NCBI GenBank assembly: GCA_030697645.1
Contig: JAUYPI010000015.1
Span: 15,583 to 79,582, forward strand
Direction of reading: 5' to 3'
Length of the DNA: 64,000 nt
Origin: a bacterium
Lineage (GTDB): Bacteria; Patescibacteriota; Minisyncoccia; Phycocordibacterales; VMGT01
Part shown: positions 5,411-59,435 of the stretch, in pieces
Position numbering within the stretch: position 1 is the first letter of the stretch
Layout of the letters: every line of letters begins with the position of its first letter
Translations under genes and position numbers: made by a program
The notes under the pieces: generated by a model
What the model saw: the letters and a program-made list of their open reading frames with translations, nothing else
The model's database searches: none
What the model was told of the DNA's origin: nothing

Positions 5411-6616
5411 ATGACGTTCGGCGACTTACTTAGAACGCTGATGAAGGTCGTACGACGGCCGGTCTTTGGCACGCGTGGGCCGAGCGTTCTCGGAATAGAC
5501 TTCGGCACTTCCTCACTCAAGGTCGTGCAGGCGTATAAACAAGGCGGCAAGGCAATGCTTGAGACGTATGGGGCTGTCGCGCTTGGACCCTACGGCGGTG
5601 TCGAGGTCGGGCAAGCGACGCGTCTTAGTCCCGAGCAGGCGGCAGCGGCCCTTACAGACCTCTTCCGGGAGGCAAATGTAACGACGCGCCAGTGCGCAGT
5701 CGCGATCCCGCTCTCGGCGAGCCTCGTCTCGTTTATGCAACTGCCCGAGGTCTCCGAGAATGAGCTCACTACGATGGTGCCACTCGAGGCGCGTAAGTAC
5801 ATCCCGGTACCGCTCTCTGAGGTCTCGCTCGACTGGATGATCGTACCGGAGGTGCCCGCCGCGGGGGACCGGGCAGGGGGCGTTCAAGAGGGTGGCGCGT
5901 TTGGAGACAGTGACGCTCACACGCCCCGCTCGGCTTCGGGCGGGGCGAGAGAGGCAGAACGACGTAGTGCCGAACGCGTGGGTGTGCTTGTGGTCGCCAT
6001 TCACAACGAGGAGCTTGCACTCTACCGCGCGATTGGGAGAGCCGCCGCGCTCGCTGTGCATTTTGTGGAAGTGGAGATTTTTAGCGCGGTGCGCGCGGTA
6101 CTCCGACAGGGGATGGAGGTGGTGCTCGTGGTTGACGTCGGCGGACACACCACAAAGATGTATCTTGTGGAACGCGGTATAGTGAAGGGTACGCACAGTA
6201 TCAATCGCGGCTCGCAGCACATTACTGAGGCGCTCGCGCGTTCTCTCGGGATCCCCCTTACTGAGGCCGAGGAGCTGAAGCGGAGTGGCAAGATTGCGGA
6301 GAAGATGGGCGCTCGTACGCTCGAGGAGCTCGTGCCGACCCAGGTAGACCTTATTTTTGCAGAGATACGACGGCTTTTGATTCAGTATCAGCACCGCTCT
6401 CTGAGGGTTGTCTCGCACGCGATTTTTATCGGCGGCGGTGCGCTTCTTCCCGGTTTCCTCGATCGGGCGCGCGCGGTACTGCCGACCGAGGTCTCGCTCG
6501 GCGATCCGTTCCAGAAGCTCGAGGCGCCGGCGTTCCTTGAGGACGTGCTGCGACAGGCAGGGCCGGAGTTTGCGGTGGCCACGGGCTTGGCTCTCCGTGC
6601 GCTGGCGGAACAGTAG
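5411..6616 (+). CDS. pilM: Type IV pilus assembly protein PilM (actin-like ATPase)
   Basis: N-terminal LGIDFGTSSLKVV motif and a two-domain actin/FtsA-like fold pattern (VLVVDVGGHTTK). First gene of the pil cluster. Confidence 0.85.
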   Translation: MTFGDLLRTLMKVVRRPVFGTRGPSVLGIDFGTSSLKVVQAYKQGGKAMLETYGAVALGPYGGVEVGQATRLSPEQAAAALTDLFREANVTTRQCAVAIPLSASLVSFMQLPEVSENELTTMVPLEARKYIPVPLSEVSLDWMIVPEVPAAGDRAGGVQEGGAFGDSDAHTPRSASGGAREAERRSAERVGVLVVAIHNEELALYRAIGRAAALAVHFVEVEIFSAVRAVLRQGMEVVLVVDVGGHTTKMYLVERGIVKGTHSINRGSQHITEALARSLGIPLTEAEELKRSGKIAEKMGARTLEELVPTQVDLIFAEIRRLLIQYQHRSLRVVSHAIFIGGGALLPGFLDRARAVLPTEVSLGDPFQKLEAPAFLEDVLRQAGPEFAVATGLALRALAEQ

Positions 6617-6733
6617 CTCAAAAATTTTCAATTATCAATTTTATAATTTTTAATCAATTTTCAATTACTCAATTTTCAAACACGACGTCGTCCGTTATTG
6701 AAAATTGAAAATTGTAAATTGAAAATTATCACC
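6617..6733. repeat. Hairpin-array element (arm AATTTTCAAT / ATTGAAAATT, core CAAACACGACGTCGTCCGTT)
   Basis: Fills the whole pilM-pilN intergenic region and ends 3 nt before the ATG at 6734. The core contains the palindrome ACGACGTCGT. Confidence 0.8.
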
Positions 6734-7354
6734 ATGGACACTCGCTTCAAAACCACATTTATGTCGAAGCAGCCGATCATGGCGGCGTCGCAAAAGAGAC
6801 ATCGAACGCTCGGCCCGAGCGCCGATCTCCTCGGCATTGTCGTTTCCGGCATATTCGTCCTCGCGTTTCTCTTTGCTGCTGGCACGTTTCTCTACGAGCG
6901 TTTGTCGATCCGCCGCGTCGTCGTGCTGGAAAAAACACTCGCGGAGGCACGCGAGGCATTCGAACCTGCGGTGATCGAGGAGCTCAAGCGCGACGACGCG
7001 CGAATGAAGGCGGCCGAGGTGCTCGTTGCAGGTCACCGGGCAGCGACGCCGCTTTTTCGAGTTCTTGAGGACGAGACTCTTCGAAGTGTGCAGTACAGCT
7101 CGTTTGCCTATACGGTAGAGGGCGGGCCTGGGGGGAAACTCAAGCTCGATGGTAGAGCGCGAGGATTCCGTTCTGTTGCGCTCCAGGCAGATACCTTCGG
7201 TAGTCAGCCAGACCTGATCAATCCGGTATTTTCGAACCTCGATCAGGATGTGAAAACAGGGTTCGCGACGTTTGATTTCGAAGCACAAATCGGGAAGAGG
7301 CTTATGGATTATGGAGCGATGATTGAGAGTGAGGAGGGCGCTGGAAGGCAGTGA
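6734..7354 (+). CDS. pilN: PilN-like pilus assembly protein
   Basis: Short cytoplasmic N-terminus, a single TM (LLGIVVSGIFVLAFLFAAGTFL), then a coiled-coil periplasmic region. Positioned after pilM. Start taken at ATG 6734; the ORF track starts at 6698. Confidence 0.5.
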   Translation: MDTRFKTTFMSKQPIMAASQKRHRTLGPSADLLGIVVSGIFVLAFLFAAGTFLYERLSIRRVVVLEKTLAEAREAFEPAVIEELKRDDARMKAAEVLVAGHRAATPLFRVLEDETLRSVQYSSFAYTVEGGPGGKLKLDGRARGFRSVALQADTFGSQPDLINPVFSNLDQDVKTGFATFDFEAQIGKRLMDYGAMIESEEGAGRQ

Positions 7355-7399: not shown

Positions 7400-7514
7400 C
7401 TCAATTATCAATGTTCAATTTTAAATTTTCAATCAATTTTCAATTACCAAATTTTCAAACACGACGTCGTCCGTTATTGAAAATTGAAAATTGTAAATTG
7501 AAAATTAATAATCC
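7400..7514. repeat. Hairpin-array element (same arm and core as 6617..6733)
   Basis: caattatcaatgttcaattttaaattttcaatcaattttcaattacc - caaacacgacgtcgtccgtt - attgaaaattgaaaattgtaaattgaaaatt. Ends 7 nt before the pilO ATG. Confidence 0.8.
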
Positions 7515-8135
7515 ATGAAGCCATTTATTTCCATTCTTATATTCGCCCTCAGTGTTGCCGTGGTGGTGTTCTATATCAAGCCAGCGTTGCCACGGATTAA
7601 GGCGCTCCGGCAGGATATCTTTTTTTTGGAGGATACGCTTGAGAGCGCGCGCGAGCTTCAGAGTGTGCGCGACAAGCTCCTCGCGAAGTATAACAGCTTC
7701 CCGCCGGATGATATTGAGCGGCTGCATAAGCTCCTGCCGGACAATGTTGATAATGTCCGCTTGATTATTGACATAGATGAGATGGCGAGCCGCTACGGCC
7801 TCACGATTCAGGATATAAACATTAAGCAGCAACAAGAATCGCGCGTGCGCACCGCCGGAGCGGCGGACGAGGAAGCGGAGGACTTTGGAACGAGTGCGCG
7901 CACGGCACGTGAAATGTCGGAGGCGGCGGAAGGACTCGTTGAGCCGAAGCTCTCATTCCTCACGCTTTCATTTAGTGTGGTTGCGTCCTACGAGCGGTTT
8001 CTCGCCTTCCTCCGTGACATGGAGCGGAGTCTGCGGATTGTTGACGTCACCGAGCTTTCGTTCGAGTCGGGCAAAGACGCCGCGACCAAGGGGCACCTGT
8101 TTAAGGTGGCGGTGAAGACGTACTGGCTGCAATAG
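7515..8135 (+). CDS. pilO: PilO-like pilus assembly protein
   Basis: N-terminal TM (FISILIFALSVAVVVFYI), coiled coil, and a C-terminal domain. Gene order is pilM-N-O. Confidence 0.5.
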   Translation: MKPFISILIFALSVAVVVFYIKPALPRIKALRQDIFFLEDTLESARELQSVRDKLLAKYNSFPPDDIERLHKLLPDNVDNVRLIIDIDEMASRYGLTIQDINIKQQQESRVRTAGAADEEAEDFGTSARTAREMSEAAEGLVEPKLSFLTLSFSVVASYERFLAFLRDMERSLRIVDVTELSFESGKDAATKGHLFKVAVKTYWLQ

Positions 8136-8136
8136 T

Positions 8137-8328
8137 ATGAAAATTTTCAATTTTCAATTTTGCAATTTTCAATCAATTTCCAAGTACTCAATTTTCAAAC
8201 ACGACGCCGTTCGTCATTAAGTCATTGCAGCATTGAAAATTTATTGAAAATTGTAAATTGAAAATTATGAACACCGGCGCTTGGTTTGACATTTGAGTTT
8301 GCTCCAATTTCGGATTTTAATTTGTTGT
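8137..8328. repeat. Hairpin-array element (AATTTTCAAT family)
   Basis: aattttcaattttcaattttgcaattttcaatcaatttccaag... core caaacacgacgccgttcgtcatt ... attgaaaatttattgaaaattgtaaattgaaaatt. Ends at the ATG of the next gene. Confidence 0.75.
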
Positions 8329-8697: not shown

Positions 8698-8739
8698 GCG
8701 GCGGGAACAGCGCTGTAGCATAAGAAGTGTAAAACGCAA

Positions 8740-8927
8740 AGCGAAAAGCGAAAAACAACAGCACAAAATTTCAAGCTCCAACCAACAAGCTCCAAACAAA
8801 TTCCAATGATTCAAATCTCAATCTCGAAACACGCCGGTTTGAGATTTGAGATTTGGAATTTGAGGTTTATTTGGAAGTTGTTTTTTGGAATTTGGAAATT
8901 CGTTTTCTTTGCGCTTTTCATTTCTGT
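8740..8927. repeat. Composite hairpin-array element (outer arms GCAAAGCGAAAA, inner arms ATTTCCAA / TTGGAAAT, core GAAACACGCCGGTTTGAG)
   Basis: Nested inverted repeats: acgcaaagcgaaaagcgaaaaacaacagcacaaaat...ttccaa... core ...ttggaatttgag...ggaaattcgttttctttgcgc. Ends at the pilB ATG (8928). Confidence 0.75.
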
Positions 8928-10658
8928 ATGAGTTACCTTTCAGTATTAGCAGACAAGGGCTTGCTTAACTCAGAGGACCTCGCGGCCCTTGAAGAGGAGA
9001 TGGTCATCGCGCCCGAGAAGATTGAAGACGGGCTTGTCGCGCGCGGCGTCAGTGCTGAGCAGGTGCTCCGCGCGAAAGGCGGGTACTTCGGACTTCCCGT
9101 GCGTTCGATTTCGAACGAGAAAATCCCCGATGAGATATTGAAGTATATTCCACAGGAATCAGCCCGGCACTACCGCGTTCTACCGCTCGCGCTTGCGGAC
9201 GGCGTCCTTGAGGTCGGCATTGTTGATCCGGAGAATTTCGAGGCACGTGACGCGATTAGTTTCCTCGCGTCAAAAAATCATGTCCCGTTTAAATTTTTTC
9301 TCATATCGCGTGATGATTTTGATCGCGCACTGCGTACGTACGAAGGGCTCACCGCCCAGGTTGGGGAGGCACTCGAGGAGTACGAGACCGAGCTTGGCGG
9401 CGAGGAAGAGGCGATCAGCAAAGCCGCGGAGGATGTCTCGGGGGCGCCGCTTCCTGGGGGCGAGGTGACGACCATCGAGGAAGCGCCGGTGACGAAAATT
9501 GTTGCAACGATCCTTCGCTATGCGATTGAGGGCGGGGCTTCCGACGTCCATATCGAGCCCACGCTCGAGCGCGTACGGGTGCGGTTTCGCGTTGATGGCA
9601 TTTTGCACACGAGCCTCATTTTGCCGATTAAGGTGCACCGCGCCGTGGTAGCGAGGATCAAGGTGCTCTCGAACATAAAACTTGACGAAAAACGCAGACC
9701 GCAGGATGGTCGATTCTCCGCGCGTATCTCGGGGCGCAAGGTCGATTTTCGAGTTTCCTCTTTTCCAGCCTCCGGCGGCGAAAAGGTGGTGCTGCGCATC
9801 CTTGATCAGGAACGAGGTGTGAAGACACTCGAGGGGATCGGCATGCGCGACTCGCATCTCTCTCTCGTGCGGCAGGCGCTGAAGATGCCCTATGGCATGA
9901 TCCTCATCTCCGGTCCGACCGGTTCGGGAAAGTCAACGACGCTCTATGCGATGCTCCAGGAGGTGGATCGCGAGAAGCTGAACGTGGTGAGCCTTGAGGA
10001 CCCGGTAGAGTACCATATCGATGGCGTCGCGCAGTCGCAGGTGATGCCCGAGATCGGATTTACGTTCGCCTCGGGACTCCGTTCTGTACTGCGACAGGAC
10101 CCGGATGTCATCATGGTCGGCGAGATTCGCGACCGCGAGACCGCACAGCTTGCGATCCAGGCCGCGCTCACCGGACATATCGTTTTTTCGACGCTTCACA
10201 CGAACACCGCGGCAGGTGCCATACCGCGACTTATTGATATGGGGGTGGACCCCTATCTTATCGCGCCAACCGTGGTGCTCGTCGTCGCGCAGCGTCTGGT
10301 GCGCACACTCTGCGCCGGGGCGGGCCGTGCGGTCGCCATCGACGGTAGCATTAAACTGATGCTTGAGAAGCAGTTTGCCGACATGCCGAATGCGCATCGC
10401 GATAGGCTGCCTTTGGGAAAAGAAGTATACGAGGCATCGCCGACCCCCGAGTGCGCTTCGGGCGTGCGGGGACGCACCGCCGTCTTCGAGATGTTTCGTA
10501 TGACGAAAGAGCTTGAACGGGTGATTCTCGAAACGCCGACCGAGTCGAGTGTCTATCAACATGTGCGCGAGGTGCAAGGGATGCTCACCATGAAAGAGGA
10601 TGCTATACTGAAGTCATCCGAGCGTATCGTGCCGTTTGAGGAGGTAAATACACTGTGA
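8928..10658 (+). CDS. pilB: Type IV pilus assembly ATPase PilB (GspE family)
   Basis: Walker A LISGPTGSGKSTTLYAML, GspE N-terminal domain, Asp box, His box (HIVFSTLHTN) and the tetracysteine-region equivalent. Start taken at ATG 8928, just after the repeat; the ORF track extends to 8853 inside the repeat. Confidence 0.9.
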   Translation: MSYLSVLADKGLLNSEDLAALEEEMVIAPEKIEDGLVARGVSAEQVLRAKGGYFGLPVRSISNEKIPDEILKYIPQESARHYRVLPLALADGVLEVGIVDPENFEARDAISFLASKNHVPFKFFLISRDDFDRALRTYEGLTAQVGEALEEYETELGGEEEAISKAAEDVSGAPLPGGEVTTIEEAPVTKIVATILRYAIEGGASDVHIEPTLERVRVRFRVDGILHTSLILPIKVHRAVVARIKVLSNIKLDEKRRPQDGRFSARISGRKVDFRVSSFPASGGEKVVLRILDQERGVKTLEGIGMRDSHLSLVRQALKMPYGMILISGPTGSGKSTTLYAMLQEVDREKLNVVSLEDPVEYHIDGVAQSQVMPEIGFTFASGLRSVLRQDPDVIMVGEIRDRETAQLAIQAALTGHIVFSTLHTNTAAGAIPRLIDMGVDPYLIAPTVVLVVAQRLVRTLCAGAGRAVAIDGSIKLMLEKQFADMPNAHRDRLPLGKEVYEASPTPECASGVRGRTAVFEMFRMTKELERVILETPTESSVYQHVREVQGMLTMKEDAILKSSERIVPFEEVNTL

Positions 10659-11121: not shown

Positions 11122-11232
11122 TTTTCAATGCTCAATTTTCAATCAATTTACAATGGTCCAATTTTCAAACACGACGTCGTTCATCTATTGAAACATTGAA
11201 AATTGAAAATTAGAAATTGAAAATTTTCGTCT
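11122..11232. repeat. Hairpin-array element (AATTTTCAAT family)
   Basis: ttaattttcaatgctcaattttcaatcaatttacaatggtcc - aattttcaaacacgacgtcgttcatct - attgaaacattgaaaattgaaaattagaaattgaaaatt. Ends 9 nt before the pilT ATG. Confidence 0.8.
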
Positions 11233-12294: not shown

Positions 12295-12359
12295 AACGAA
12301 ATTGCTCGACCTGTCACCTGTCGAGGCGGCATGGTTCAAGGTTGCCTGGAGGAGTGCCG

Positions 12360-12531
12360 GCACGAGAAATTTTCAATTTCCAATTTTCAATTTCCAATCA
12401 ATTTTTAATTACTCAATTTTCAAACACGTCGTCGCCATTGAGTCATTGAAGCATTGAAAATTTATTGAAAATTGCTCATTGAAAATTGAAAATTAAAAAT
12501 GTCTGCCTTTGGTTTCCCCCTTTAGCATTTC
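12360..12531. repeat. Hairpin-array element (AATTTTCAAT family)
   Basis: gaaattttcaatttccaattttcaatttccaatcaatttttaattactcaattttcaaacacgtcgtcgccattgagtc ... attgaaaatttattgaaaattgctcattgaaaattgaaaatt. Confidence 0.75.
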
Positions 12532-13773: not shown

Positions 13774-13900
13774 AAGTCAATTTCCAATTTCCAAATTTTC
13801 AAATCTCAAACACGGAAAACGTTCGGGTTTGGAAATTGGAGCTTTGAGATTTGGAGATTGTTTGGAAATTGTAAATTTGGAACTTGGAAATTCGAGTCTT
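13774..13900. repeat. Hairpin-array element (arm ATTTCCAA / TTGGAAAT, core CAAACACGGAAAACGTTCGGGTTTGG)
   Basis: caatttccaatttccaaattttcaaatctcaaacacg...cgggtttggaaattggagctttgagatttggagattgtttggaaattgtaaatttggaacttggaaatt. Ends 6 nt before the secF ATG at 13901. Confidence 0.75.
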
Positions 13901-20582: not shown

Positions 20583-20764
20583 AGCTAGGCGGTGTCTTCA
20601 AGGCATGCGCGCGAGAGTTCTTTGACAACAGAATAAGCATACACACAAGACAAAGCAAAAACAAAACGTCTATTCCTTAAAAAAACAGAGAGCAGAAGAA
20701 GTTGTTCCTTCTTTTGTTCCGTCCACAAATAGGGAGGTTGGAGATACTCCAACTTCTATAATTT

Positions 20765-20803
<39 letters not shown>

Positions 20804-20851
20804 GATAAGGCATGCAAGTCATACGGGCCGCACCTCATTGCATTCGGTGCG

Positions 20852-20990
20852 GAATTTTCAATTTTCAATTTTACAATTTTCAAATAATTTCCAATGATTA
20901 AATTTCCAATTTCCAAACACGACGTCGTCGGCGTTTGAAAATTGACCCATTGAAAATTTATTGAAAATTGAAAATTGATAATTGAAAATT
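20852..20990. repeat. Hairpin-array element (AATTTTCAAT family) inserted in the 16S V1 helix
   Basis: Same arm unit and core (caaacacgacgtcgtcggcgtt) as the pil intergenic copies. Flanked by hairpins ccgcacctcattgcattcggtgcgg and gccgcaccgagtgtggcgaggtgcggc. Confidence 0.8.
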
Positions 20991-21190
20991 CCGCCGCACC
21001 GAGTGTGGCGAGGTGCGGCTAGTGGCGAACGAGGCAGTAATACGCAGGAACGTACCCTGGAGACGGGCATAACCAGCCGAAAGGTTGGCTAATTCCCGAT
21101 GGTCCGAGCACATATTTTTGGAGAAAAACAAAAGGCGCATCCTGTACCTGTATAGATACTTTGGATGCGCCCTGCAACATTGAGCGGTTT

Positions 21191-21310
21191 CTAGAGGAAC
21201 AGGAAAGTAGCAATCATTACGGCGATGATACCGACTAAGACCCAAGACATCCAACGAAGCTGACTTGGGCCATAGTCTATTCTTCCGCTCTGTCCTCTCG
21301 CGATTTTCAT
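21191..21310 (-). CDS. Candidate 39-aa single-TM peptide antisense to the 16S V2 insertion
   Basis: aggaggTCGTCatg SD-ATG, then MKIARGQSGRIDYGPSQLRWMSWVLVGIIAVMIATFLFL. It is below the 60-aa cut-off of the ORF track. Coordinates are approximate to a few nt. Confidence 0.3.
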   Translation of the reverse strand: MKIARGQSGRIDYGPSQLRWMSWVLVGIIAVMIATFLFL

Positions 21311-22157
21311 GACGACCTCCTTTTTCGCTGAAGAAAGAAAAGCATAGGGGTCTATATATTGTCAAGTATCTTACTTGGCTTCCAAAAATATGTGCTCGGT
21401 AAAGGAGCAATCTGCTCCGGGAGCGGCCTGCGGGCTATCAGCTAGTTGGTGGGGTAACGGCCTACCAAGGCTCTGACGGCTAGGGGGGGTGAGAGCCCGA
21501 TCCCCGCCGATGACACTGCGACACGGGTCATACACCTACGGGTGGCAGCAGCCGAGAATATTCGACAATGGGCGAAAGCCTGATCGAGCGACGCCGCGTG
21601 GTGGATGAAGCACTTCGGTGCGTAAACACCTTTTATGAGGGAAGAAGTTCGCCGCACCTCATTGCATTCGGTGCGGACATTTCGATATATCGAAATTTCG
21701 AAATATCGAAATGTCCGCCGCACCGAGTGCAGCGAGGTGCGGCGGATTGACGGTACCTCATGAATAAGGGGCTCCTAATCACGTGCCAGCAGGAGCGGTA
21801 ATACGTGAGCCCCAAGCGTTATCCGGAATCACTGGGCGTAAAGGGTGTGTAGGCGGCCGCGTTAGTCCTCCGTTAAATCCCACGGCTCAACCGTGGAGCT
21901 GCGGAGGATACGGCGCGGCTTGAGGGCGCGAGAGGTGTGCGGAACTCACGGTGTAGGGGTGAAATCCGTTGATATCGTGGGGAACACCAAAAGCGAAGGC
22001 AGCACACTGGCGCGCCCCTGACGCTGAAACACGAAAGCGTGGGTAGCGAAGCAGATTAGATACCTGCGTAGTCCACGCCCTAAACTCTGTCCGCTAGCTT
22101 TTCGGAGTATCGACCCTCTGGGAGGCGAAGCTAACGCGTTAAGCGGACCGCCTGGGA

Positions 22158-22189
<32 letters not shown>

Positions 22190-22722
22190 AGACGGGGACC
22201 AGCACAAGCGGTGGATCATGTGGTTCAATTCGATGGTAAACGAAGAACCTCACCAGGGCTTGAAATCCAGATGAACTCGCCTCGAAAGGGGTGCGGCCTT
22301 CACAAGAGGCATCTGGACAGGTGCTGCATGGTTGTCGTCAGTTCGTGGCTTAAGTTGTTCCCTTTAGTGGGGTAACGAACGCAACCCCCGTCGCCTGTTA
22401 TACGTGTCAGGCGAGACTGCCCAGCCCAAAGTGCGGCTCACTTCGGTTCGCCGCAGAATCAAGAAGTATGAAGTATGAAGTATGGAAATGTACGAAGAAA
22501 AACCATAATTCATGATTCATAATTCTTGCTTCTGCATCGAGCGGAGCGAGATGCATTTCGGGCTGGGAGGAAGGCGGGGATGACGCCAAATCAGCATGGC
22601 CCTCTGACGCCCTGGGCTACACACGTGATACAATGGCCGGTACAACGGGTCGCGACGGGGTAACCCTGAGCCAATCCTTATAAAGCCGGCCTCAGTTCGG
22701 ATTGAGGTCTGCAACTCGACCT

Positions 22723-22757
<35 letters not shown>

Positions 22758-23610
22758 TATACTGCGGTGAATACGTTCTCTGGTCTTGTACTCACCGCCC
22801 GTCATGCTAAGGGAGCCGGGAATACCCGAAACCCCGCCCTTTGCTCGCGGAGCAAAGGGCGGGATATATCGAAATTTTGAAATATCGATATGTCCCGCCC
22901 TTTGTTCACTTCGTGAACAAAGGGCGGGGTTACGGTAAGCTCGGTGACAGGAGCAAAGTCGTTGAGACATACTGTCTTGTTGCGACCTATGTGAGCGATC
23001 ACATAGTAAAACCCAACTGATATCGGTGAACCCCAGCGTACACAATTCACAATTTCTAATTTCAATTTTGAATTAGTCATTGAGAATTCGTAGTTGCGCC
23101 AGCTGGGCAATACCGAGGGAAGCCCACTAGGAGCTAGTTTTTTAACTGGTAACTAGTTGCGGCCCCGTAGAGACTTCCTGCACTTTTCTAGAAGTAGAAG
23201 GCGCAGGGGATGGCGTTGAAAAATTCACGCTATAAAACGTTGGCCCCAGCCGTAAAGTTTCCTAAAGAAACATTACGGCTGGGTGAAGATATAGTCCGTG
23301 CCTCAATGTAAATTGAGGGTAACACATGAACAAGGCACCGGTAGCGGAAGCTGTTGGTGGAATCATTCCTAGATCCCGTCCCAAGGCGCGTAAAGCGCGC
23401 CATGTTTAAATATTTAAATGTTTAAACATGGCCAAAATTCGCTTTGCGAATTTTGGCGAGGACTGATCAGGTCGGTCCGAGGGTGGAAGTTTTTCTTCCA
23501 TTCCTCGGAATCATGCTGTGGCTGTCAGCTAAACCAGCTAGCGGAGTTAGATGCAAATTTAGCTTCCAACCGTGGACGGAACAAAAGAGGGAACAAAAAA
23601 CACTCAAAAA

Positions 23611-23640
23611 ACCGCTCAATCGAGCGGTTTTTTGCTTCGC
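23611..23640 (+). terminator. Intrinsic terminator after the 16S gene
   Basis: aaccgctcaatcgagcggtt hairpin plus a TTTTTT tail. There is no 23S or tRNA in the following 40 kb of window, so the rRNA operon looks unlinked. Confidence 0.6.
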
Positions 23641-23703
23641 AGCGAATAGCCGAAAGATTTTTATTGCACGTTAAAAAATCATGCTAGTCAAGTAGTATCT
23701 TGG

Positions 23704-23732
23704 TTGACAATCGTACATTCTCCTGTAAGCTA
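23704..23732 (+). promoter_or_regulatory. Candidate promoter (TTGACA-16 nt-TAAGCT) of duplicated unit 1
   Basis: Consensus -35 followed by a TAnnnT -10. It is duplicated almost exactly at 25489..25516 upstream of the paralogous gene. Confidence 0.4.
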
Positions 23733-23902
23733 TTGAAGTTGCCTAGATTTAGGCATCGAGATTAAACCTCTCTTTATATGGGAGGTTTTGTTTGTTCTTT
23801 GTTAACGGAAAGGAGGTGATGCCTATGTGGGTTTCGTGAGAGATACAAGGGTTTTTCCCGAGTTTTTCAACTGATGACAAACGGAAATGAAAGGGAAGAT
23901 TC

Positions 23903-25276
23903 ATGGTTTCGAAATTAAAGTTCTTGGTCGCAGTATTGCTGATGATTGGTCTTGGTCTGCCCATGTCTATGGTGGCAGCCCCGGCGCCAGATGCAGTGTC
24001 TGTCCTTATTTTGGACAGCACAGTAAGCGGAGGGGCTCTATCGCGTGAGGCAGTACTCGCTGCCGCGAACGGGTTCACAGTGGTAGTTGACAGCGCCGCG
24101 GCCTGGGGCGCGAGAACTATGGCTGAATTCGCGACCTTTAGGGCGATCATTCTCGGTGATGCGACGTGCACGGGCGTTGGCGCGGTGGCCGCCGCCGAAG
24201 CAAACAAGGCAGTGTGGGGGCCAGCGATAGATGGCAACGTGATTATCAACGGTACGGACCCGGTATTTCACCAGGGCCAAGGCGGGGATGCGCTTACCGA
24301 AGGCAGCATTAAGTTTGCGGCTGATGAGCCAACTAAGACAGGCGCCTACATCAGTCTGAGCTGCTATTATGCCGGTGCAGCCTCTGGCACACCCGCGCCT
24401 GTGTTGGATCCTTTTGGCAGTTTTACGGTCGTTGGTCAGGGTGGATGCCCCGCAGATTCGCACATCGTGGCAGTGCACCCGGCGCTTGCTGGGATTACTG
24501 ATGCCAGCCTGTCAAACTGGGGTTGTTCTACCCACAACGGGTTTGTGACGTATCCGGCGGACTTCCTCGTTCTTGCTATTTCCGAGGATATCCCTTCAAC
24601 CTATGTGGCGCCTGATGGATCGACTGGCGCCCCCTATATTCTCGCGCGTGGTGAGACGCTCTCGCCGATTCTGTGCGGGAACGGGATTCTGGAGATGACC
24701 GAGGAGTGCGACGACGGTAACGTTGTCAACGGAGATGGATGTTCTGCCCAGTGCAAGATTGAGGTCTATGTACCTGCGTGCGGGAACGGAATCCTTGATT
24801 CAGGCGAGCAGTGCGACGACGGAAACCTGCTGAATGGGGACGGATGTTCGGATGTCTGTAAGTTCGAGAACCAAGACCCCGATTGTAAGAGCGCGTATCC
24901 TGATCCGGCGACCCTTTGGCCACCGAATCATAAGTACGTGACCGTTTCTGTTCTCGGTGTCACGGATCCTGACGGCGATGCAGTCGTTGTCATGGTGAAC
25001 AGCGTGACGCAGGACGAGCCAGTAAATGGTCTCGGTGACGGCGACACCTCGCCCGATGCCGTGATTAATTCTGACGGTACAGTCAAGGTTCGCGCCGAAC
25101 GCTCCGGAACCCCAAAGGTACCAGGTGATGGACGAGTCTATCACATTGGTTTCATGGCGGAAGACGGCATGGGCGGCAAGTGCGCCGGGACTGTCTTAGT
25201 GTGCGTGCCCCACGACATGGGACAGGGCAGCGTCTGTGTAGACGGCGGACCGCTGTATGACTCGCTCATGCCGTAG
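23903..25276 (+). CDS. Secreted protein: signal peptide, N-terminal domain, two myxo-type cysteine-rich repeats, shared C-terminal domain
   Basis: Signal peptide MVSKLKFLVAVLLMIGLGLPMSMVAAPA. Two C-x-N-G-x-L-E/D-x-x-E-x-C-D-D-G-N-x-x-N-G-D-G-C-S repeats (TIGR02232-like; family from memory). A C-terminal ~130-aa domain (WPPNHK...VTDPDGD...GTPKVPGDGRVYH...VCVPHDMGQGSVCVDGGPLYDSLMP) is shared with 25712..27766. Confidence 0.6.
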   Translation: MVSKLKFLVAVLLMIGLGLPMSMVAAPAPDAVSVLILDSTVSGGALSREAVLAAANGFTVVVDSAAAWGARTMAEFATFRAIILGDATCTGVGAVAAAEANKAVWGPAIDGNVIINGTDPVFHQGQGGDALTEGSIKFAADEPTKTGAYISLSCYYAGAASGTPAPVLDPFGSFTVVGQGGCPADSHIVAVHPALAGITDASLSNWGCSTHNGFVTYPADFLVLAISEDIPSTYVAPDGSTGAPYILARGETLSPILCGNGILEMTEECDDGNVVNGDGCSAQCKIEVYVPACGNGILDSGEQCDDGNLLNGDGCSDVCKFENQDPDCKSAYPDPATLWPPNHKYVTVSVLGVTDPDGDAVVVMVNSVTQDEPVNGLGDGDTSPDAVINSDGTVKVRAERSGTPKVPGDGRVYHIGFMAEDGMGGKCAGTVLVCVPHDMGQGSVCVDGGPLYDSLMP

Positions 25277-25334
25277 TAGTTAACCCTCCTTCCGTAATTT
25301 TGTAAGGCCGCCTCATCCTCTGAGGCATGGCAAA

Positions 25335-25372
25335 CGGCCCGAGCTTATACCTTGCTCGGGCCGTTTCCTTTT
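25335..25372 (+). terminator. Intrinsic terminator of duplicated unit 1
   Basis: ggcccgagc-ttatacctt-gctcgggcc plus a T-rich tail. A near-identical copy lies at 27822..27860 after the paralog. Confidence 0.55.
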
Positions 25373-25488
25373 GTCCAATTGTCCAACGATTAAAAATCGC
25401 TCCGTTGAGCGGTTTTTTGCGTCGCGTTTAATCGAAGGAGGATTTTAATCGCACATTAAATAATCATAGCAGTCAAGTATTACTTGTG

Positions 25489-25516
25489 TTGACAAACGTA
25501 CATCCTCCTGTAAGCT
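25489..25516 (+). promoter_or_regulatory. Candidate promoter of duplicated unit 2
   Basis: Near-identical copy of 23704..23732 and its downstream structured leader (gttgcctag.tttaggcatcg...aacctctctttat.gggaggt.ttgtttgttctttgttaacggaaaggaggtg). Confidence 0.4.
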
Positions 25517-25711
25517 ATGGAAGTTGCCTAGTTTTAGGCATCGGTATCAAACCTCTCTTTATGGGAGGTCTTGTTTGTTCTTTGTTAACGGAAAGGAGGT
25601 GGTGCATTTGAGTGTCGCAGGTATCGCAGGACGATATTTTTTGCGAGAGGGACGGAGCGAATTGTTCACTCCGCCCGAGACGAATCCAGTCTACGGAAAA
25701 GGAACGATTGA

Positions 25712-27766
25712 ATGTTACGACATTATGTAGCGACTGTTTTGGTTGTAGTGATGGCGCTTGTTGCGCCATTGCAATCGGCTCTCGCGGGCCATCTCACCGG
25801 TACTCCGGCAACGTACACGCTCGATGCAGACTTCGACGAGGGCACCCTCGTGAACGTCAACCATACTGATGTGACTGATCAACTTCAGCTCAACAGTGTA
25901 GCTAAGCCATTTGGTTTCATTTGGATCGCCGCATCCGATCGTGGAACGGTGATCAAGATTAACACAGTGACTGGCGCAATTCTCGGCGAATATCGGACTG
26001 CACCTGCAGGCCGCGCGCTTAACCCGTCTCGGACTACCGTTGACAGCAATGGCAGTGTCTGGGCAACAAACCGCAACGAAGGCGACTTTGTCGCAGCCAA
26101 CGCCATTTCACCAGGTATTCCAGCCGCAGGTGGCGGCATGGGTTCTGTCGTCCACATCGGCCTTGAAGAAAACGGGCAGTGTGTGGATCGAAACGGCAAT
26201 GCTGTTATTGATACGTCCGCGGGACTTGGCGATATTAAGCCATGGCTAAACGGCGGCGGTGTTGATAATCTTGGCGGTGTCTCAACCGCCGAGGACGAGT
26301 GTATTATTCACTACACGCGTGTCAACTCAACCTTTTCCCGGCATGTGTCTGTTAATACCAGCAACAATGTGTGGGTCTCTGGCATCGGGGATCGGAACTT
26401 CGACCTCGTTGACGGTGCGACTGGCATGATCATTAGTCAACAGCCATCCGTCGGCTTCGGGGGCTATGGCGGTTTGATTGACGGCGCAGGTGTTATCTGG
26501 TCTGCGCGGCCACTCCTGCGCTGGGATACGGCGCTTCCTTTAGTGGGGCCAAATGGGGATCCTGCGGGATTTAGCATCGGTCCGCCAGCGCCTGCAACCA
26601 ATTGGTCCGGCCAAGGTGCGCCTGATAGTTATGGGCTCTGCATTGACCCATCTGGCAATGTCTGGAATACGCGCTTGTTCGGAAATGCGATTGACAAGTA
26701 CGCGCCGGACGGCACACACCTCGGCACATTTGCCCATGGAAATGGTGAAGCGCAGGGCTGTGTCGCAGACACGAGTGGCCATATCTGGGTTGCACATTCT
26801 TTATTCGGTGCGACCACTGTTGGTCATTTACTGAATGACGGCACCTACGTGGGGAACGTGCCTCTTCCGGGAGGTGTCGGCCCAACTGGTCTTGCCGTGG
26901 ATGCGGCTGGAAAAATTTGGTCTGCTAATATTAGCTCCAATAACGCCTCACGGATTGATCCCTCGTTGGGACCTATCGGTGGAGGCGGAGTTCCTGTCGG
27001 TGCCGTAGACATGACGGTCGCGCTCGGTGCGGGCGCAGGTCCGTATAATTATTCCGACATGACCGGCAGCACCCTGATTGCTGCGCCGAACAATGGCACA
27101 TGGACGATCGTTCATGATAGCGGTGTCGTCGGGCAAGAGTGGGGCAAGGTGAGCTGGACTGCTTCCACGCCGTCCGATAGCATGCTGACGGTGACGGTTG
27201 CGAGTAGTGGCGACGGTTTGATCTTTGGACCTCCGGAAGCCGCGACGAATGGCGGCGATCTGTCGGTCGCGAACGGACAGTATGTGAAGGTGGTCGTGAG
27301 CTTTACGCGCGCGACGACCGGCGAGAGTCCTATCTTGTATGACTTAAGTCTCTCAACGAACGAAGCTCCCGACTGCGACGGTGCCTATGCGGACCCAGGC
27401 GTAATCTGGCCGCCGAATCACAAAATGGTGCCGCTTACAATAAGCGGCGTGACGGATCCTGATGGCGATCCGGTCGTGATCATAGTGACAGGTATCATGC
27501 AGGACGAGCCGACGAACACGCTTGGCGATGGCAACACCGAAGTTGATGGCGCTATTGACATGAGTGGCATGGCTTCTGTTCGTGCCGAACGCACCGGAAC
27601 CCCCAAAGTACCGGGTGACGGACGAGTCTACCATGTGACCTTCGAAGCTGATGATGGCAATGGTGGAAAATGCTCCGGTGTTGCACGGGTCTGCGTACCC
27701 CACGACATGGGACAGGGCAGCGTCTGTGTAGACGGCGGACCGCTGTATGACTCGCTCATGCCATAA
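25712..27766 (+). CDS. Secreted protein: signal peptide, beta-propeller-like repeat region, shared C-terminal domain
   Basis: Signal peptide MLRHYVATVLVVVMALVAPLQSALA. Repeated G-x-h-W-x-x-N blades (NGSVWATN, SGNVWNTR, SGHIWVAH, AGKIWSAN) resembling NHL / SMP-30-type propellers. The final ~130 aa are paralogous to 23903..25276, and the last 25 aa are identical. Confidence 0.6.
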   Translation: MLRHYVATVLVVVMALVAPLQSALAGHLTGTPATYTLDADFDEGTLVNVNHTDVTDQLQLNSVAKPFGFIWIAASDRGTVIKINTVTGAILGEYRTAPAGRALNPSRTTVDSNGSVWATNRNEGDFVAANAISPGIPAAGGGMGSVVHIGLEENGQCVDRNGNAVIDTSAGLGDIKPWLNGGGVDNLGGVSTAEDECIIHYTRVNSTFSRHVSVNTSNNVWVSGIGDRNFDLVDGATGMIISQQPSVGFGGYGGLIDGAGVIWSARPLLRWDTALPLVGPNGDPAGFSIGPPAPATNWSGQGAPDSYGLCIDPSGNVWNTRLFGNAIDKYAPDGTHLGTFAHGNGEAQGCVADTSGHIWVAHSLFGATTVGHLLNDGTYVGNVPLPGGVGPTGLAVDAAGKIWSANISSNNASRIDPSLGPIGGGGVPVGAVDMTVALGAGAGPYNYSDMTGSTLIAAPNNGTWTIVHDSGVVGQEWGKVSWTASTPSDSMLTVTVASSGDGLIFGPPEAATNGGDLSVANGQYVKVVVSFTRATTGESPILYDLSLSTNEAPDCDGAYADPGVIWPPNHKMVPLTISGVTDPDGDPVVIIVTGIMQDEPTNTLGDGNTEVDGAIDMSGMASVRAERTGTPKVPGDGRVYHVTFEADDGNGGKCSGVARVCVPHDMGQGSVCVDGGPLYDSLMP

Positions 27767-27821
27767 GTAGTTACCCTCCTTCCGTAATTTTGCGAGGCCG
27801 CTTCATCTTCTGATGCGTGCC

Positions 27822-27860
27822 ACGGCCCGAGCTATTACCTTGCTCGGGCCGTTTCCTTTT
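27822..27860 (+). terminator. Intrinsic terminator of duplicated unit 2
   Basis: ggcccgagc-tattacctt-gctcgggcc plus gtttccttttg. Confidence 0.55.
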
Positions 27861-27985
27861 GTAAAAGTGGACATCTAAAAGTGGACATCGGATGTCCACC
27901 AAATGTCCACCAATTTATTCAAAGCGTAAAAAATCCGGGCAACCACGGCTGTGGTTGCCCGGATTCTCCTTGCCCGCGATCGTTT

Positions 27986-30974: not shown

Positions 30975-31191
30975 GCCAAGCGGAAAACGCAAAACGAAAA
31001 ACAACAGTGCAAAGCGCAAAAAATTTCCAATTTCCAAAAAACAATTTCCAAACGAATCTCAAATCTCAAGTTCCAAATCACAAACGTTCGTGTTTGGAAC
31101 TTGAACTTTGAATCATTGGAATTTGTTTGGAGCTTGTTTTTTGGAGCTTGAAATTTTATTCTGTTGTTTTGCGCTTTTCGTTTTGCGCTGC
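30975..31191. repeat. Composite hairpin-array element (outer GCAAAACGAAAA / inner ATTTCCAA, core CAAACGTTCGTGTTTGG)
   Basis: Same nested architecture as 8740..8927 and 54286..54520. Ends at the ATG (31194) of the next gene. Confidence 0.75.
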
Positions 31192-40961: not shown

Positions 40962-41816
40962 ATGAAAAACCAAGAAAAGTCATCCCCTCTCGAATCCCTA
41001 ACCATTAACTTCCGACCCGGACACCTCCACCCACTCACGCAGGTGATGGAGCGGATCGCGGCTGTCTTTACTGCACTTGGGTTCGCGATTGCAGACGGGC
41101 CGGAGATCGAAACTGAGTATTACAATTTCGACGCGCTCAATATCCCCGCCGATCATCCGGCGCGTGATATGCAGGACACTTTTTGGCTCGCGGAGCCGAA
41201 AAGTGAATTTCCAATTTCCAAAAACCAATTTCCAAATACGACGAACGTCGAGCGCGCGGATGCCGGGGCAACGTCACAGAAACTTTTGCTCCGCACGCAC
41301 ATAAGCTCACTTCAGGTGCGTTATATGGAGGCACATGGACCGCCGTTTCGGATGATATCGAGTGGGCGGGTGTATCGGCACGAGGCGACAGATGCGACGC
41401 ATGAGGCCCAATACCACTACACGGAGGGGCTTGCCGTGGAGCAAAGCGCCTCGCTGGCGCAGTTGAAGTACGTGCTGGACGCATTTGCAAAAAGCATTTT
41501 CGGCGAGAGTATGAAGAGTCGTTTTCGCCCTGCGTACTTTCCGTTTGTCGAGCCGGGGGTTGAAGTGGACCTCTCGTGCGTCGCGTGTGGCGGCGTTGGT
41601 GGGGCGTGCAGCGTGTGCAAGGGCACCGGCTGGGTGGAGGTGCTTGGCGCTGGCATGGTGCACCCGCAGGTGCTCACGAACGGCGGCATTGACCCCGCGC
41701 TCTGGCGCGGTTATGCATTCGGCGTTGGCGTTGATCGCATCGCCATGCTTCTCTACGGGATTCCGGATATACGATTGTTTTATAACGGCGACCTGCGCGT
41801 GGTGAATCAGTTTTGA
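40962..41816 (+). CDS. pheS: Phenylalanine-tRNA ligase alpha subunit, short form
   Basis: Class II motifs (FRMISSGRVYRHEATDATHEAQYHYTEGL, FPFVEPGVEVD, GAGMVHPQVL). Carries an in-frame insertion at 41199..41250. Confidence 0.85.
   Translation: MKNQEKSSPLESLTINFRPGHLHPLTQVMERIAAVFTALGFAIADGPEIETEYYNFDALNIPADHPARDMQDTFWLAEPKSEFPISKNQFPNTTNVERADAGATSQKLLLRTHISSLQVRYMEAHGPPFRMISSGRVYRHEATDATHEAQYHYTEGLAVEQSASLAQLKYVLDAFAKSIFGESMKSRFRPAYFPFVEPGVEVDLSCVACGGVGGACSVCKGTGWVEVLGAGMVHPQVLTNGGIDPALWRGYAFGVGVDRIAMLLYGIPDIRLFYNGDLRVVNQF
41199..41250. repeat. Half hairpin-array (ATTTCCAA units plus core remnant) inserted in-frame in pheS
   Basis: gtgaatttccaatttccaaaaaccaatttccaaatacgacgaacgtcgag encodes SEFPISKNQFPNTTNVE. 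Confidence 0.7.
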
Positions 41817-50380: not shown

Positions 50381-50953
50381 ATGTTCATCGTCGGTATTAC
50401 CGGAACGCTCGGCGCGGGGAAGGGCACGGTGGTTGATTACCTCGTGCGGGAGAAGGGGTTCGTCCACGCATCTGTTTCTGAATTTCTTGCGGTGGAGACA
50501 AAGCGTCGCGGCATCGAGCCGGACAGGATTGCCCGACACAACCTCGCAAACGAATATCGAGCACAAGGGCCGACGGTGCTCATGGAGGCCGTGTATCAAT
50601 CGGTTCCTCAGGGAGTCGAGAGGGTCGTACTCGAGCCGCAACACACCGTCTCCGAGGTGCGGTTTATGCAGAGCCGAGGAGGCGTGGTGTTCGCAGTTGA
50701 TGCGGACCTCGAGACTCGCTATAACCGCATACGAGAGCGTGGGAGTCTTAAAGATAACGTATCATTTGATGAGTTTGCTGCGATTCAGAAGCTCGAAATG
50801 GCTTCGGATGATCCGAACAAGAACAATCTTGGCGCGGCTATCGAGGCAGCTGATTTTCATGTTACAAACGACGGGACGCTGGAGGAGCTCTATACGCAGA
50901 TCGAGCAGGTACTGGCAAAAATTCATTTCTCCAAACACGACGTGCGTGTTTGA
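50381..50953 (+). CDS. P-loop nucleotide or nucleoside kinase (dephospho-CoA kinase / dNK-like)
   Basis: Walker A GITGTLGAGKGTV and a size (190 aa) typical of small NMP/dNMP kinases. Exact specificity is not determinable from sequence. Confidence 0.4.
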   Translation: MFIVGITGTLGAGKGTVVDYLVREKGFVHASVSEFLAVETKRRGIEPDRIARHNLANEYRAQGPTVLMEAVYQSVPQGVERVVLEPQHTVSEVRFMQSRGGVVFAVDADLETRYNRIRERGSLKDNVSFDEFAAIQKLEMASDDPNKNNLGAAIEAADFHVTNDGTLEELYTQIEQVLAKIHFSKHDVRV

Positions 50954-51010
50954 GGTTTGATGCATTGGAATTTGAAATTTGTTTGGAAATTGTTGGTTGG
51001 AAATTGGAGC
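50954..51010. repeat. Half hairpin-array (TTGGAAAT units) after the kinase gene
   Basis: gtttgaggtttgatgcattggaatttgaaatttgtttggaaattgttggttggaaattggag. The core gacgtgcgtgtttgagg overlaps the CDS end. Confidence 0.6.
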
Positions 51011-51078
51011 TTCGTCGTGGTGTGACGTCGGATGTCAACGTCGGCGATTTCGATTATTCAAAGTAACCAAATACGGCG

Positions 51079-52715: not shown

Positions 52716-52857
52716 GATGCGATGCGCTTAATTTTCAATTTTCAATTCCAATGAATTTTCAATGTTTCAATGATGCAATGACGGACGACGTCGTGTTTGA
52801 AAATTGGGTAATTGAAAATTGATTGAAAATTGAGCATTGAAAATTTTTCCTTGAGTC
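52716..52857. repeat. Hairpin-array element (AATTTTCAAT family, core in reverse orientation)
   Basis: ttaattttcaattttcaattccaatgaattttcaatg...gcaatgacggacgacgtcgtgtttg...aaaattgggtaattgaaaattgattgaaaattgagcattgaaaatt. Confidence 0.75.
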
Positions 52858-52872
52858 TTGTATACTATACTC

Positions 52873-54285: not shown

Positions 54286-54520
54286 AACTGAGTGCAAAAT
54301 GTAAAGTGCAAAGCGCAAAACAACAGTACAAAATTCCAAGCTCCAACCAACAATTTCCAAACAAATTTCAAATTCCAATGCATCAAATCTCAAACACGCA
54401 CGTCGTGTTTGGAAATTGGATTTTGAGTATTGTGATTTATTTGGAGCTTGTTTTTTGGAATTTGGAAATTCGTTTTGCTCATTGCGCTGTTGTTTTTCGC
54501 TTTGCGAGTGCGAGCGGAAC
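54286..54520. repeat. Composite hairpin-array element (outer CAAAGCGAAAAACAACAG, inner ATTTCCAA, core CAAACACGCACGTCGTGTTTGG)
   Basis: Same three-layer nesting as 8740..8927 and 30975..31191. Confidence 0.75.
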
Positions 54521-59393: not shown

Positions 59394-59435
59394 GACGAGA
59401 GCGTCGCGGTGGAGTTATCCACACCACTTAAATTT

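Follow-up and report, generated by a model that had tools for sequence, protein, structure and literature searches.

Two adjacent secreted-protein genes of a CPR bacterium share an unnamed C-terminal domain and near-identical predicted expression signals

Dockerin, SLH and PPC domains and the C-terminal domains of the type IX secretion system (T9SS CTD) all follow one plan, in which a single conserved C-terminal module is carried by many secreted passengers, often by several proteins of one genome and sometimes by the products of adjacent genes. The same plan was found in two neighbouring genes (gene 1 and gene 2) on a 64-kb stretch of DNA (the window) from a member of the Candidate Phyla Radiation (CPR)/Patescibacteria, both of which end in a domain referred to here as the WPPNHK domain. 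This domain, however, is related to neither dockerin nor SLH in sequence or fold, the T9SS CTD lies downstream of it as a domain of its own in taxa of the Fibrobacterota-Chlorobiota-Bacteroidota (FCB) type, and, unlike the known C-terminal display modules, it has neither a known receptor or scaffold nor a conserved neighbour gene. It resembles the bacterial immunoglobulin (Ig)-like and cadherin-like domains (Big_9 PF17963, Cadherin PF00028 and the He_PIG/dystroglycan type) in being an extracellular all-beta sandwich of ~100-130 aa, and its acidic loop motifs of the DPDGD, QDEP and RAER type recall the Ca2+ sites of cadherin-like domains.

CPR bacteria, for the most part uncultured and with tiny genomes, are believed to live attached to host cells. 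The proteins that they secrete or carry on the surface are largely unannotated and are the likely tools of such a lifestyle. To our knowledge, almost nothing is known about gene regulation in these organisms. The explanation that we favour for the present locus, and that we hold to be somewhat more probable than the alternatives taken together, is that of two independently transcribed genes for secreted proteins with a shared display domain, preceded by a leader that serves as stabiliser or attenuator, and kept alike in part by selection and gene conversion. The finding is real and less exotic than was proposed in the preliminary description of the locus: it comprises an unnamed family in a known fold class, a candidate CPR leader and a mosaic pattern of conservation, and no new kind of system.

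The C-terminal 141 aa of the two proteins are 65% identical (E 7e-62), and the cores without the terminal tail 60%. No match to this region was found in Pfam-A, NCBIfam or the PDB sequences, so that the hidden Markov model searches gave no name to a domain which had not been recognised by eye either. It is nevertheless not a rarity confined to this genome or to CPR, since 1.84 billion cluster representatives, searched exhaustively with a profile, yielded 20,160 matches at E<=1e-3, 14,952 at E<=1e-10 and 3,854 at E<=1e-30, from many phyla and one archaeal metagenome-assembled genome (MAG). A word-indexed search with the domain returned 786 proteins, and a scan of one genome per species gave 79 loci, distributed amongst CPR, Acidobacteriota (many of them Thermoanaerobaculia), Myxococcota, Gammaproteobacteria, Planctomycetota, Chloroflexota, Actinomycetota, lineages of the Nitrospirota type, FCB-group phyla and the archaeal MAG. 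Two of these have an odd taxonomic label, namely a contig labelled as a Klebsiella pneumoniae MAG (L009) and the Methanomicrobiales MAG (L070), which may reflect mis-binning or horizontal transfer. Relatives are 45-70% identical to the window copy throughout and share the signature WPPNHK ... GVTDPDGD ... QDEP.NG.GDG.T.PD ... RAER.G ... G(D/N)GRVY ... C.G.V.V.VPHD ... D.G..YDS. The locus thus pins down a very large family (~15,000 clusters at 50% identity and E<=1e-10, in at least 12 phyla) that is unnamed in domain libraries; a name for it would help to annotate thousands of secreted proteins now called 'hypothetical', and the domain offers a target for structural and binding studies. No relevant literature was found on WPPNHK, DUF4215 or cadherin-like domains in CPR.

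Based on a structure model of the domain (predicted local distance difference test score, pLDDT, 89.4), the fold is all-beta, a seven-strand beta-sandwich that can be superimposed on the extracellular (EC) domains of cadherins. The best structural neighbours are cadherin EC domains, the cadherin-like modules of SraP, dystroglycan and 2yhg, a cellulose-binding protein of Saccharophagus with a cadherin-like domain; matches also include the Ig modules of GH158 and GH107 enzymes. The gathering scores of Big_9 and Cadherin were not reached, the C-terminal regions of the window proteins giving no match at E<=1 and the isolated domain none at E<=10, while among eight relatives Big_9 appeared below threshold in six (best E 4.7e-5) and Cadherin in one (E 0.087). 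The novelty first attributed to the domain therefore holds for its name but not for its fold, which is recognisably of the cadherin/bacterial-Ig type, and the domain is a distinct unnamed family inside a known fold class. Two pairs of cysteines covary almost perfectly: C7 and C106 are both present in 190 sequences, both absent in eight and single in two, and C113 and C124 occur together in 147, are missing together in 59 and never occur alone. This covariation argues for two disulfides and an extracytoplasmic location and, together with the signal peptides, for export of the products. Many of the best-conserved positions are acidic residues or glycines in predicted loops (D34, Q49-D50-E51, G57, G59, D64, R76-E78-R79, D100 and D126). 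An intramolecular Lys-Asp/Asn isopeptide bond was also considered and ruled out, the K of WPPNHK being Q, R, M, A, E or T in relatives.

The N-terminal parts of the two products had been described as unrelated, with Cys-rich repeats in one and a beta-propeller-like region in the other, and protein comparison agrees. The models for the myxo-type Cys-rich repeats match gene 1 at residues ~258-320 (TIGR02232, 96.9 bits against a cut-off of 20.8; PF13948, 54.3 bits against 27) and give no match in the gene 2 product, which is matched by PF08450 (SMP-30/gluconolactonase/LRE-like, SGL) at 40.8 bits (cut-off 26.3), with the Vgb_lyase and NHL models under their cut-offs. Gene 1 accordingly shares two bona fide repeats with the Myxococcus cysteine-rich repeat proteins (TIGR02232 / DUF4215), as the NCBI annotation also has it, but here they form a ~65-aa linker between two unannotated domains, and no sorting tail of the MYXO-CTERM type is seen in the product, which terminates in the folded WPPNHK domain. 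The first of the two unannotated domains matches no Pfam or NCBIfam model and has a flavodoxin-like GATase1 fold (ThuA-like); its C64, C129 and H98 are invariant and could belong to a Cys-His-Glu catalytic triad, or the cysteines may form disulfides. This N-terminal domain (residues 26-255, window 23978-24667) is itself widespread among secreted proteins, the second unannotated domain of this kind at the locus; Cys, His and Asp residues are invariant in it, and elsewhere it is fused directly to IPTL-CTERM, LPXTG, PEP-CTERM or T9SS signals, or to RTX, M23 and SGNH modules. Since it directly precedes anchor or sorting signals in those proteins, the WPPNHK domain of gene 1 sits where anchors usually sit.

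Exact look-up identified the products of genes 1 and 2 as MDP3735489.1 and MDP3735490.1 at NCBI (locus tags Q8R39_). Both genes lie on the + strand and encode plausible Sec-type signal peptides; a 16S rRNA gene lies directly upstream of the pair, and rpmB and a thioredoxin-reductase-like gene lie downstream on the opposite strand. Each unit contains, in order, a T1 hairpin, TTGACA-16 nt-TAAGCT, a small hairpin (hairpin 1), a second hairpin (hairpin 2) followed by a U-rich tract, a Shine-Dalgarno (SD)-like element GGAAAGGAGGTG, a short open reading frame (ORF), the gene and a T2 terminator, and each gene has in addition a ribosome-binding site of its own, weaker than GGAAAGGAGGTG. Every element of the repeated promoter-leader-gene-terminator unit initially described was found at or beside the position first given for it (Table 1). 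An upstream repeat of ~230 nt (23607-23832 and 25392-25615, 81-87% identical) precedes the genes, and a downstream repeat of ~290 nt (25088-25381 and 27578-27869), in which the GGCCCGAGC...GCTCGGGCC terminator is included, lies at and after their 3' ends. Two leader probes of 25-37 nt each matched twice in the window, where no match was expected by chance.

Between the units, identity amounts to 93% for the promoter, 90% for the leader up to the SD-like element, 75% for T1 with its spacer, 87% for the untranslated 3' region (3'UTR) with T2 and 100% over 65 nt of coding tail; it is 54% in the leader after the SD-like element, and the signal peptides and passengers are unrelated. The conserved stretch can also be seen as one contiguous intergenic junction of ~400 nt (25208-25603), of which the right half is repeated before gene 1 and the left half after gene 2. 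The notion of a repeated unit holds for the flanks and the C-terminal domain but not for the sequence downstream of the SD-like element or for the short ORFs, which are not homologous (6 codons in unit 1 against 42 in unit 2) and whose peptides are not conserved. The two genes appear from these signals to be monocistronic, with near-identical predicted expression signals. A sister MAG labelled 'Patescibacteria group bacterium' (L160) is 99.7-100% identical to the window locus and is therefore uninformative on selection; its contig ends at window position 25752, just past the leader repeat.

Taken together, the two independently transcribed genes would give rise to secreted, probably surface-exposed CPR/Patescibacteria proteins, each predicted to consist of a Sec signal peptide, a passenger of its own and the shared ~130-aa domain with its two putative disulfides, acidic loops and cadherin/Big_9-like Ig fold. 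The passenger would be a GATase1/ThuA-like domain with two Cys-rich repeats in gene 1, and an SGL-type beta-propeller with a beta-rich region in gene 2. We infer that the domain acts after export and in a Ca2+-dependent manner, retaining or presenting the passenger at the cell surface or mediating adhesion; it may do so by binding a conserved envelope component or itself, and would not be a secretion signal. Surface anchoring by the domain is possible. The flanks read as predicted expression signals, with a strong -35, a leader of two hairpins of which the second is terminator-like, an SD-like element with a mini-ORF and a strong terminator. Such a leader could act as a 5' mRNA stabiliser and/or an attenuator and would provide for common high expression of family members, while the identity of flanks and tail would have been maintained by purifying selection on regulatory RNA or DNA together with short-tract gene conversion.

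Several observations weigh against this explanation. When the ORFs within +/-10 kb of the domain genes were clustered over the 79 loci, no conserved receptor or partner gene was found; apart from antisense shadow ORFs, the clusters reflected nothing but synteny within the closely related Thermoanaerobaculia. Ca2+ binding is suggested by motif resemblance, and a role of the domain as a cleaved C-terminal propeptide or a folding aid is possible. The promoter first described as TTGACA...TAAGCT is present in both units, but its -10 hexamer is weak (3/6 positions of TATAAT) and it was missed by a consensus scan. A covariance model built from the two window copies recovered, among other leaders, only those of L091 (E 0.06) and L001 (E 2.4), and the case for a leader 'family' is weak, resting on a shared layout and not on statistics. 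The spliced 16S rRNA 3' tail, read from the gene sequence as GGUGGAAUCAUUCCUAG, is without a CCUCC core and would form only ~5 bp with the SD-like element (AGGAG/UUCCU), and a canonical SD match of at least 5 nt stands before the first start codon of only 7 of 43 long ORFs, so that tight binding of the 30S subunit to GGAAAGGAGGUG is doubtful here. The anti-SD of this CPR lineage may be deviant. Finally, the flank identity may stem either from conversion or from purifying selection on regulatory sequence, which two copies cannot separate.

The closest described counterpart of the leader is the stabilising SD (STAB-SD), a 5' mRNA stabiliser that, like 5' stem-loops, is known from Gram-positive mRNAs encoding secreted or crystal proteins, with B. 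thuringiensis cry3A as an example (PMC4113751). In both cry3A and the window, an SD-like sequence (GAAAGGAGG) is found ~90-130 nt upstream of the start codon, where it does not serve to start the main ORF; it is preceded by 5' hairpins, and the product is a secreted protein, the window proteins being presumably abundant as well. SD-like sequences far upstream of the start codon that do not initiate the main ORF were also observed in other CPR loci. The window leaders differ from the STAB-SD in the mini-ORF after the SD-like element and the terminator-like hairpin before it, and in the 16S 3' tail of the organism, which appears to be without CCUCC. AAGGAGG occurs on the + strand only seven times in the window.

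The leader layout recurs before WPPNHK-domain genes of Uhrbacteria (L007 and L016, with a different passenger) and Sungbacteria (L001), on contigs labelled Ryanbacteria/Saccharibacteria (L018, L092 and L002) and on a 278-kb metagenome contig (L091). The common features are TTGACA, one or two hairpins, a stable terminator-like hairpin of unrelated sequence with an A-rich 5' flank and a U-rich 3' tract, a strong SD-like element 20-45 nt further on, often with a mini-ORF, and the start of the signal-peptide gene another 60-120 nt downstream. Mini-ORFs of 1-3 codons (stop excluded) stand at the same place in L007 (ATG TAG), L016 (ATGGGTTAG) and L002/L018 (ATGCTTGTCTAA), and L001 has a hairpin of different sequence at the place of hairpin 1. 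The U-rich tract is itself conserved as UUUUGUUUGU(A/U)C(C/U)UU in W1 and W2 (the leaders of units 1 and 2), L007 and L091, and L016 has a closely similar form of it. In 1.5 Mb, 12 matches to a regular expression for the tract were obtained; the four that follow a hairpin and have an SD downstream are those in the W1, W2, L007 and L091 leaders, while the other eight lie elsewhere, in other sequence. Other searches were unproductive. The covariance model found no further leader copy in the window and otherwise only chance terminator-like matches, exact leader scans of the retrieved loci returned nothing, nor did metagenome contigs probed with a 22-nt sequence, and no meaningful consensus was obtained with RNAalifold from six leaders aligned by MAFFT, the hairpin sequences being too different and the coordinates imprecise. 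A candidate conserved 5' leader layout is thus at hand for domain genes in several CPR lineages.

Whether such a leader stabilises the message or interrupts its synthesis bears on the best-surviving alternative, according to which it is a ligand- or factor-controlled, riboswitch-like transcription attenuator in which hairpin 2 and the U-tract end most transcripts. Hairpin 2 with its U-rich tract indeed scores as an intrinsic terminator in both units, and in seven of eight folded CPR leaders a stem of differing sequence runs straight into the U-rich tract, L001 having a short AUUAG spacer. On the other hand, the sequence ahead of the terminator amounts to only ~30 nt with one small hairpin, less than a typical aptamer needs, an alternative antiterminator pairing was not identified, and the folding z-scores of the leaders are modest (-2.1 and -1.1). 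As had been suggested, the leader was also compared with Rfam: no family reached its gathering score in the window leaders, where only Leu/Thr/Phe-leader noise appeared on the T1 hairpin (E 0.1-7), and six other CPR loci gave only tRNAs. A riboswitch-like attenuator is for these reasons a possibility that we consider rather unlikely, while an attenuator under protein or RNA control at hairpin 2 has to be taken seriously. We take the leader for a 5' stabiliser or an attenuator.

As regards the domain, its end lies at most seven residues from the stop codon in 70 of 90 hmmsearch hits, and in the mature protein it comes last, behind passengers of many kinds. Eight other loci hold adjacent gene pairs that both end in the domain. 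A few proteins have two to seven copies; P0128 (1691 aa) contains seven matched stretches and an ORF of L076 (3480-8300) has two copies 800 aa apart, so the terminal position is not obligatory. In Eisenbacteria, Latescibacterota, Krumholzibacteriia, Rhodothermales and some unclassified MAGs, the domain is followed by a tail of 80-135 aa. Three tails that were tested scored 28-38 bits with TIGR04183, the model of the T9SS type A sorting domain (cut-off 23), which matched a separate tail of 80-105 aa, and the others have the same sequence pattern; no match to TIGR04183 was found in the window proteins. In FCB-type taxa the WPPNHK domain becomes C-terminal only once the T9SS CTD has been removed, and it is therefore not an export signal there.

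Instead of retaining proteins at the surface, the domain could be a carbohydrate- or substrate-binding module, or a propeptide removed after secretion. The fold matches with cellulose-binding 2yhg and with the Ig modules of GH158 and GH107 enzymes would suit such a role, as would the enzyme-like passengers of many family members; but identities of 55-65% across phyla and habitats are unusually high for a module facing varied substrates, and we regard this alternative as unlikely. The preliminary description had offered a sorting module as a further possibility, that is, a signal for a dedicated export, cleavage or attachment system comparable to the T9SS CTD, PEP-CTERM or LPXTG. The strictly C-terminal position, the many passenger types, the occupation of the anchor place among relatives of gene 1 and the high conservation across phyla all speak for it. 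Against this proposal stand the finding of a genuine, separate T9SS type A sorting domain behind the WPPNHK domain in FCB-type relatives and the lack of a conserved partner gene nearby outside closely related Thermoanaerobaculia loci. The domain moreover has no tail of hydrophobic or charged residues, CPR, diderm phyla and one archaeal MAG all possess it, and at 130 aa, folded and disulfide-bonded, it is unlike short sorting tags; a sorting signal is consequently improbable. We give as little credence to a bolder extension of the display reading, in which the WPPNHK domain would be a universal dockerin-like module that docks enzymes and adhesins to one envelope receptor across phyla, CPR episymbionts included, while in CPR the conserved gene ends would define co-regulated surface-protein genes and serve as recombination handles for passenger cassettes.

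Interactions between 5'- and 3'-UTRs have precedents in B. subtilis hbs and S. aureus icaR (PMC5737220, PMC3868564), and a comparable pairing may be envisaged here between the 3'UTR element CCCTCCTTCCGT, found directly after each stop codon, and ACGGAAAGGAGG of the leader, controlling stability or translation. The two are complementary in both units (dG -18.6 and -20.4 kcal/mol), and in the Uhrbacteria locus L007 a perfect 15-nt complement links leader and 3'UTR (GTTTGTACCTTGAAA / TTTCAAGGTACAAAC; 8958-8972 / ~10466-10480). A complement of at least 14 nt was found in only one of 3528 cross-locus control pairs, and both L007 and L016 lie above all 60 shuffles. By contrast, the window values are merely in the top 3-6% of the genomic background of short-window duplexes, W1, L001, L018 and L091 stay within the range of shuffles or of cross-locus controls, and the paired segments differ in position between loci. 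RNAduplex applied to whole UTRs gave observed energies equal to shuffle energies. With longest exact complements and Smith-Waterman scores significant only for L007 and L016, UTR pairing was dropped as a general feature, and such control appears very improbable.

The identity of the last 25 aa had been ascribed to gene conversion or very recent duplication, of which the latter is not supported. Comparison of the first 114 domain codons gave 34 synonymous and 45 non-synonymous codon differences, with a non-synonymous divergence (dN) of 0.31, a synonymous divergence (dS) of 2.17 and a third-position identity of 41%. When the tail is left out, copy 2 comes only 52nd among the 207 nearest relatives of copy 1, and copy 1 14th for copy 2, each copy having closer relatives in other phyla. 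Such values indicate that the units are old and that only the flanks have been kept alike; judged by their sequences, the units appear to be old paralogues or separate acquisitions. The pair illustrates clearly that paralogues with saturated synonymous sites may have regulatory flanks of far higher conservation.

Gene conversion at the 3' end of the coding sequence fared better. The last 25 aa, said to be identical together with their codons, are so as amino acids, while three of the 25 codons differ synonymously and the exact run is 65 nt. This tract adjoins a domain core with 63% nucleotide identity, at which the chance of such a run is 0.63^66, or ~6e-14. The tail peptide is variable among homologues (at most 86% protein identity), and protein constraint therefore does not explain the tract, which is bounded by much more diverged sequence; short-tract gene conversion would be its simplest reading. 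A recent tandem duplication of the complete unit with later N-terminal replacement in one copy, to which the in-register repetition of the flanks, the identical coding tract and the break of the sister contig just after the leader repeat might point, is contradicted by the divergence of the domain core, the many closer relatives elsewhere and the unrelated signal peptides, post-SD leaders and passengers, and is most improbable.

Table 1. Positions of the elements of the two units in the 64-kb window (dG, predicted folding energy).
Feature	Coordinates	Strand	Remarks
T1, unit 1: bidirectional terminator-like hairpin (A-tract, stem, U-tract), opens the unit	23605..23634	+	dG -18.8 kcal/mol
Promoter-like site, unit 1: TTGACA, 16 nt, (TG)TAAGCT	23704..23731	+	26/28 identical to unit 2 copy
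Leader hairpin 1, unit 1 (UGCCUA GAUU UAGGCA)	23740..23755	+	dG -8.0 kcal/mol
Leader hairpin 2, unit 1 (AAACCUCUC...GGGAGGUUU; stem 23764-23788), with U-rich tract UUUUGUUUGUUCUUUGUU	23764..23803	+	dG -11.1 kcal/mol, terminator-like
SD-like element GGAAAGGAGGTG, unit 1, 85-96 nt upstream of gene 1 start	23807..23818	+	
Mini-ORF, unit 1, 6 codons (ATG CCT ATG TGG GTT TCG TGA), directly after SD-like element	23819..23839	+	
Gene 1, 457 aa: signal peptide; GATase1/ThuA-like ~27-255; two myxo-type Cys-rich repeats ~256-320; C-terminal domain	23903..25276	+	
C-terminal 'WPPNHK' cadherin/Big_9-like domain, copy 1, 136 aa	24866..25273	+	
65-nt tract, coding tail VPHDMGQGSVCVDGGPLYDSLMP	25208..25272	+	100% identical to 27698-27762
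3'UTR, unit 1, with CCCTCCTTCCGT (CCCTCCTTCC) element and T2 terminator (stem 25334-25364)	25277..25374	+	dG -25.3 kcal/mol
T1, unit 2	25392..25418	+	dG -12.0
Promoter-like site, unit 2: TTGACA, 16 nt, TAAGCT	25489..25516	+	
Leader, unit 2: hairpin 1 25525-25540; hairpin 2 stem 25551-25569, with U-rich tract 25551-25586	25525..25586	+	
SD-like element GGAAAGGAGGTG, unit 2, 111-122 nt upstream of gene 2 start	25590..25601	+	
Upstream ORF, unit 2, GTG/TTG start, 42 codons; 19-nt out-of-frame overlap with gene 2 ATG	25602..25730	+	
Gene 2, 684 aa: signal peptide; SGL/NHL-type beta-propeller; small beta-rich region; C-terminal domain	25712..27766	+	
C-terminal 'WPPNHK' domain, copy 2	27356..27763	+	
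3'UTR and T2 terminator (stem 27822-27852), unit 2	27767..27862	+	dG -24.0 kcal/mol

Between the terminators of unit 2 and rpmB, a nested palindrome was noted at 27867-27912, made up of GTGGACAT twice and then ATGTCCAC twice (dG -21 kcal/mol). The sister MAG differs from it at two positions, and it could be an operator or a hairpin.

It was also observed that CPR genes ending in the WPPNHK domain adjoin tRNA or rRNA genes. In L001 a tRNA gene (10527-10599) follows 120 nt downstream, in L018 and L092 the domain gene is flanked by tRNA clusters, and in the window the 16S rRNA gene (20758-23375) lies upstream. The latter spans ~2250 nt for a model of 1533 nt and contains ~700 nt of insertions plus a group I intron. 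Short repeats flank the insertions (20827-21019, 21651-21743 and 22863-22895), and the intron (~22962-23339) splits AAGTCGT | AACAAGG near the 3' end, which is why the Rfam small-subunit match stops early, at 23009. Helix 45 (CACCGGUAGC GGAA GCUGUUGGUG) is intact in the part after the intron (23340-23375).

Intergenic A/T-rich palindromic repeats with 8-nt periodicity (AATTTTCAATTTTCAA ... CAAACACGACGTCGT ... TTGAAAATTGAAAATTG) occur throughout the window, and many of its genes begin directly after such a repeat, without an SD. They were located at 6584-6741, 7402-7507, 8103-8280, 8726-8906, 11129-11217, 12328-12501, 13778-13898, 20827-20997, 31021-31162, 41205-41253, 50949-51018, 52803-52859, 54291-54476 and 59430-59742, copies thus being present in the 16S region as well.

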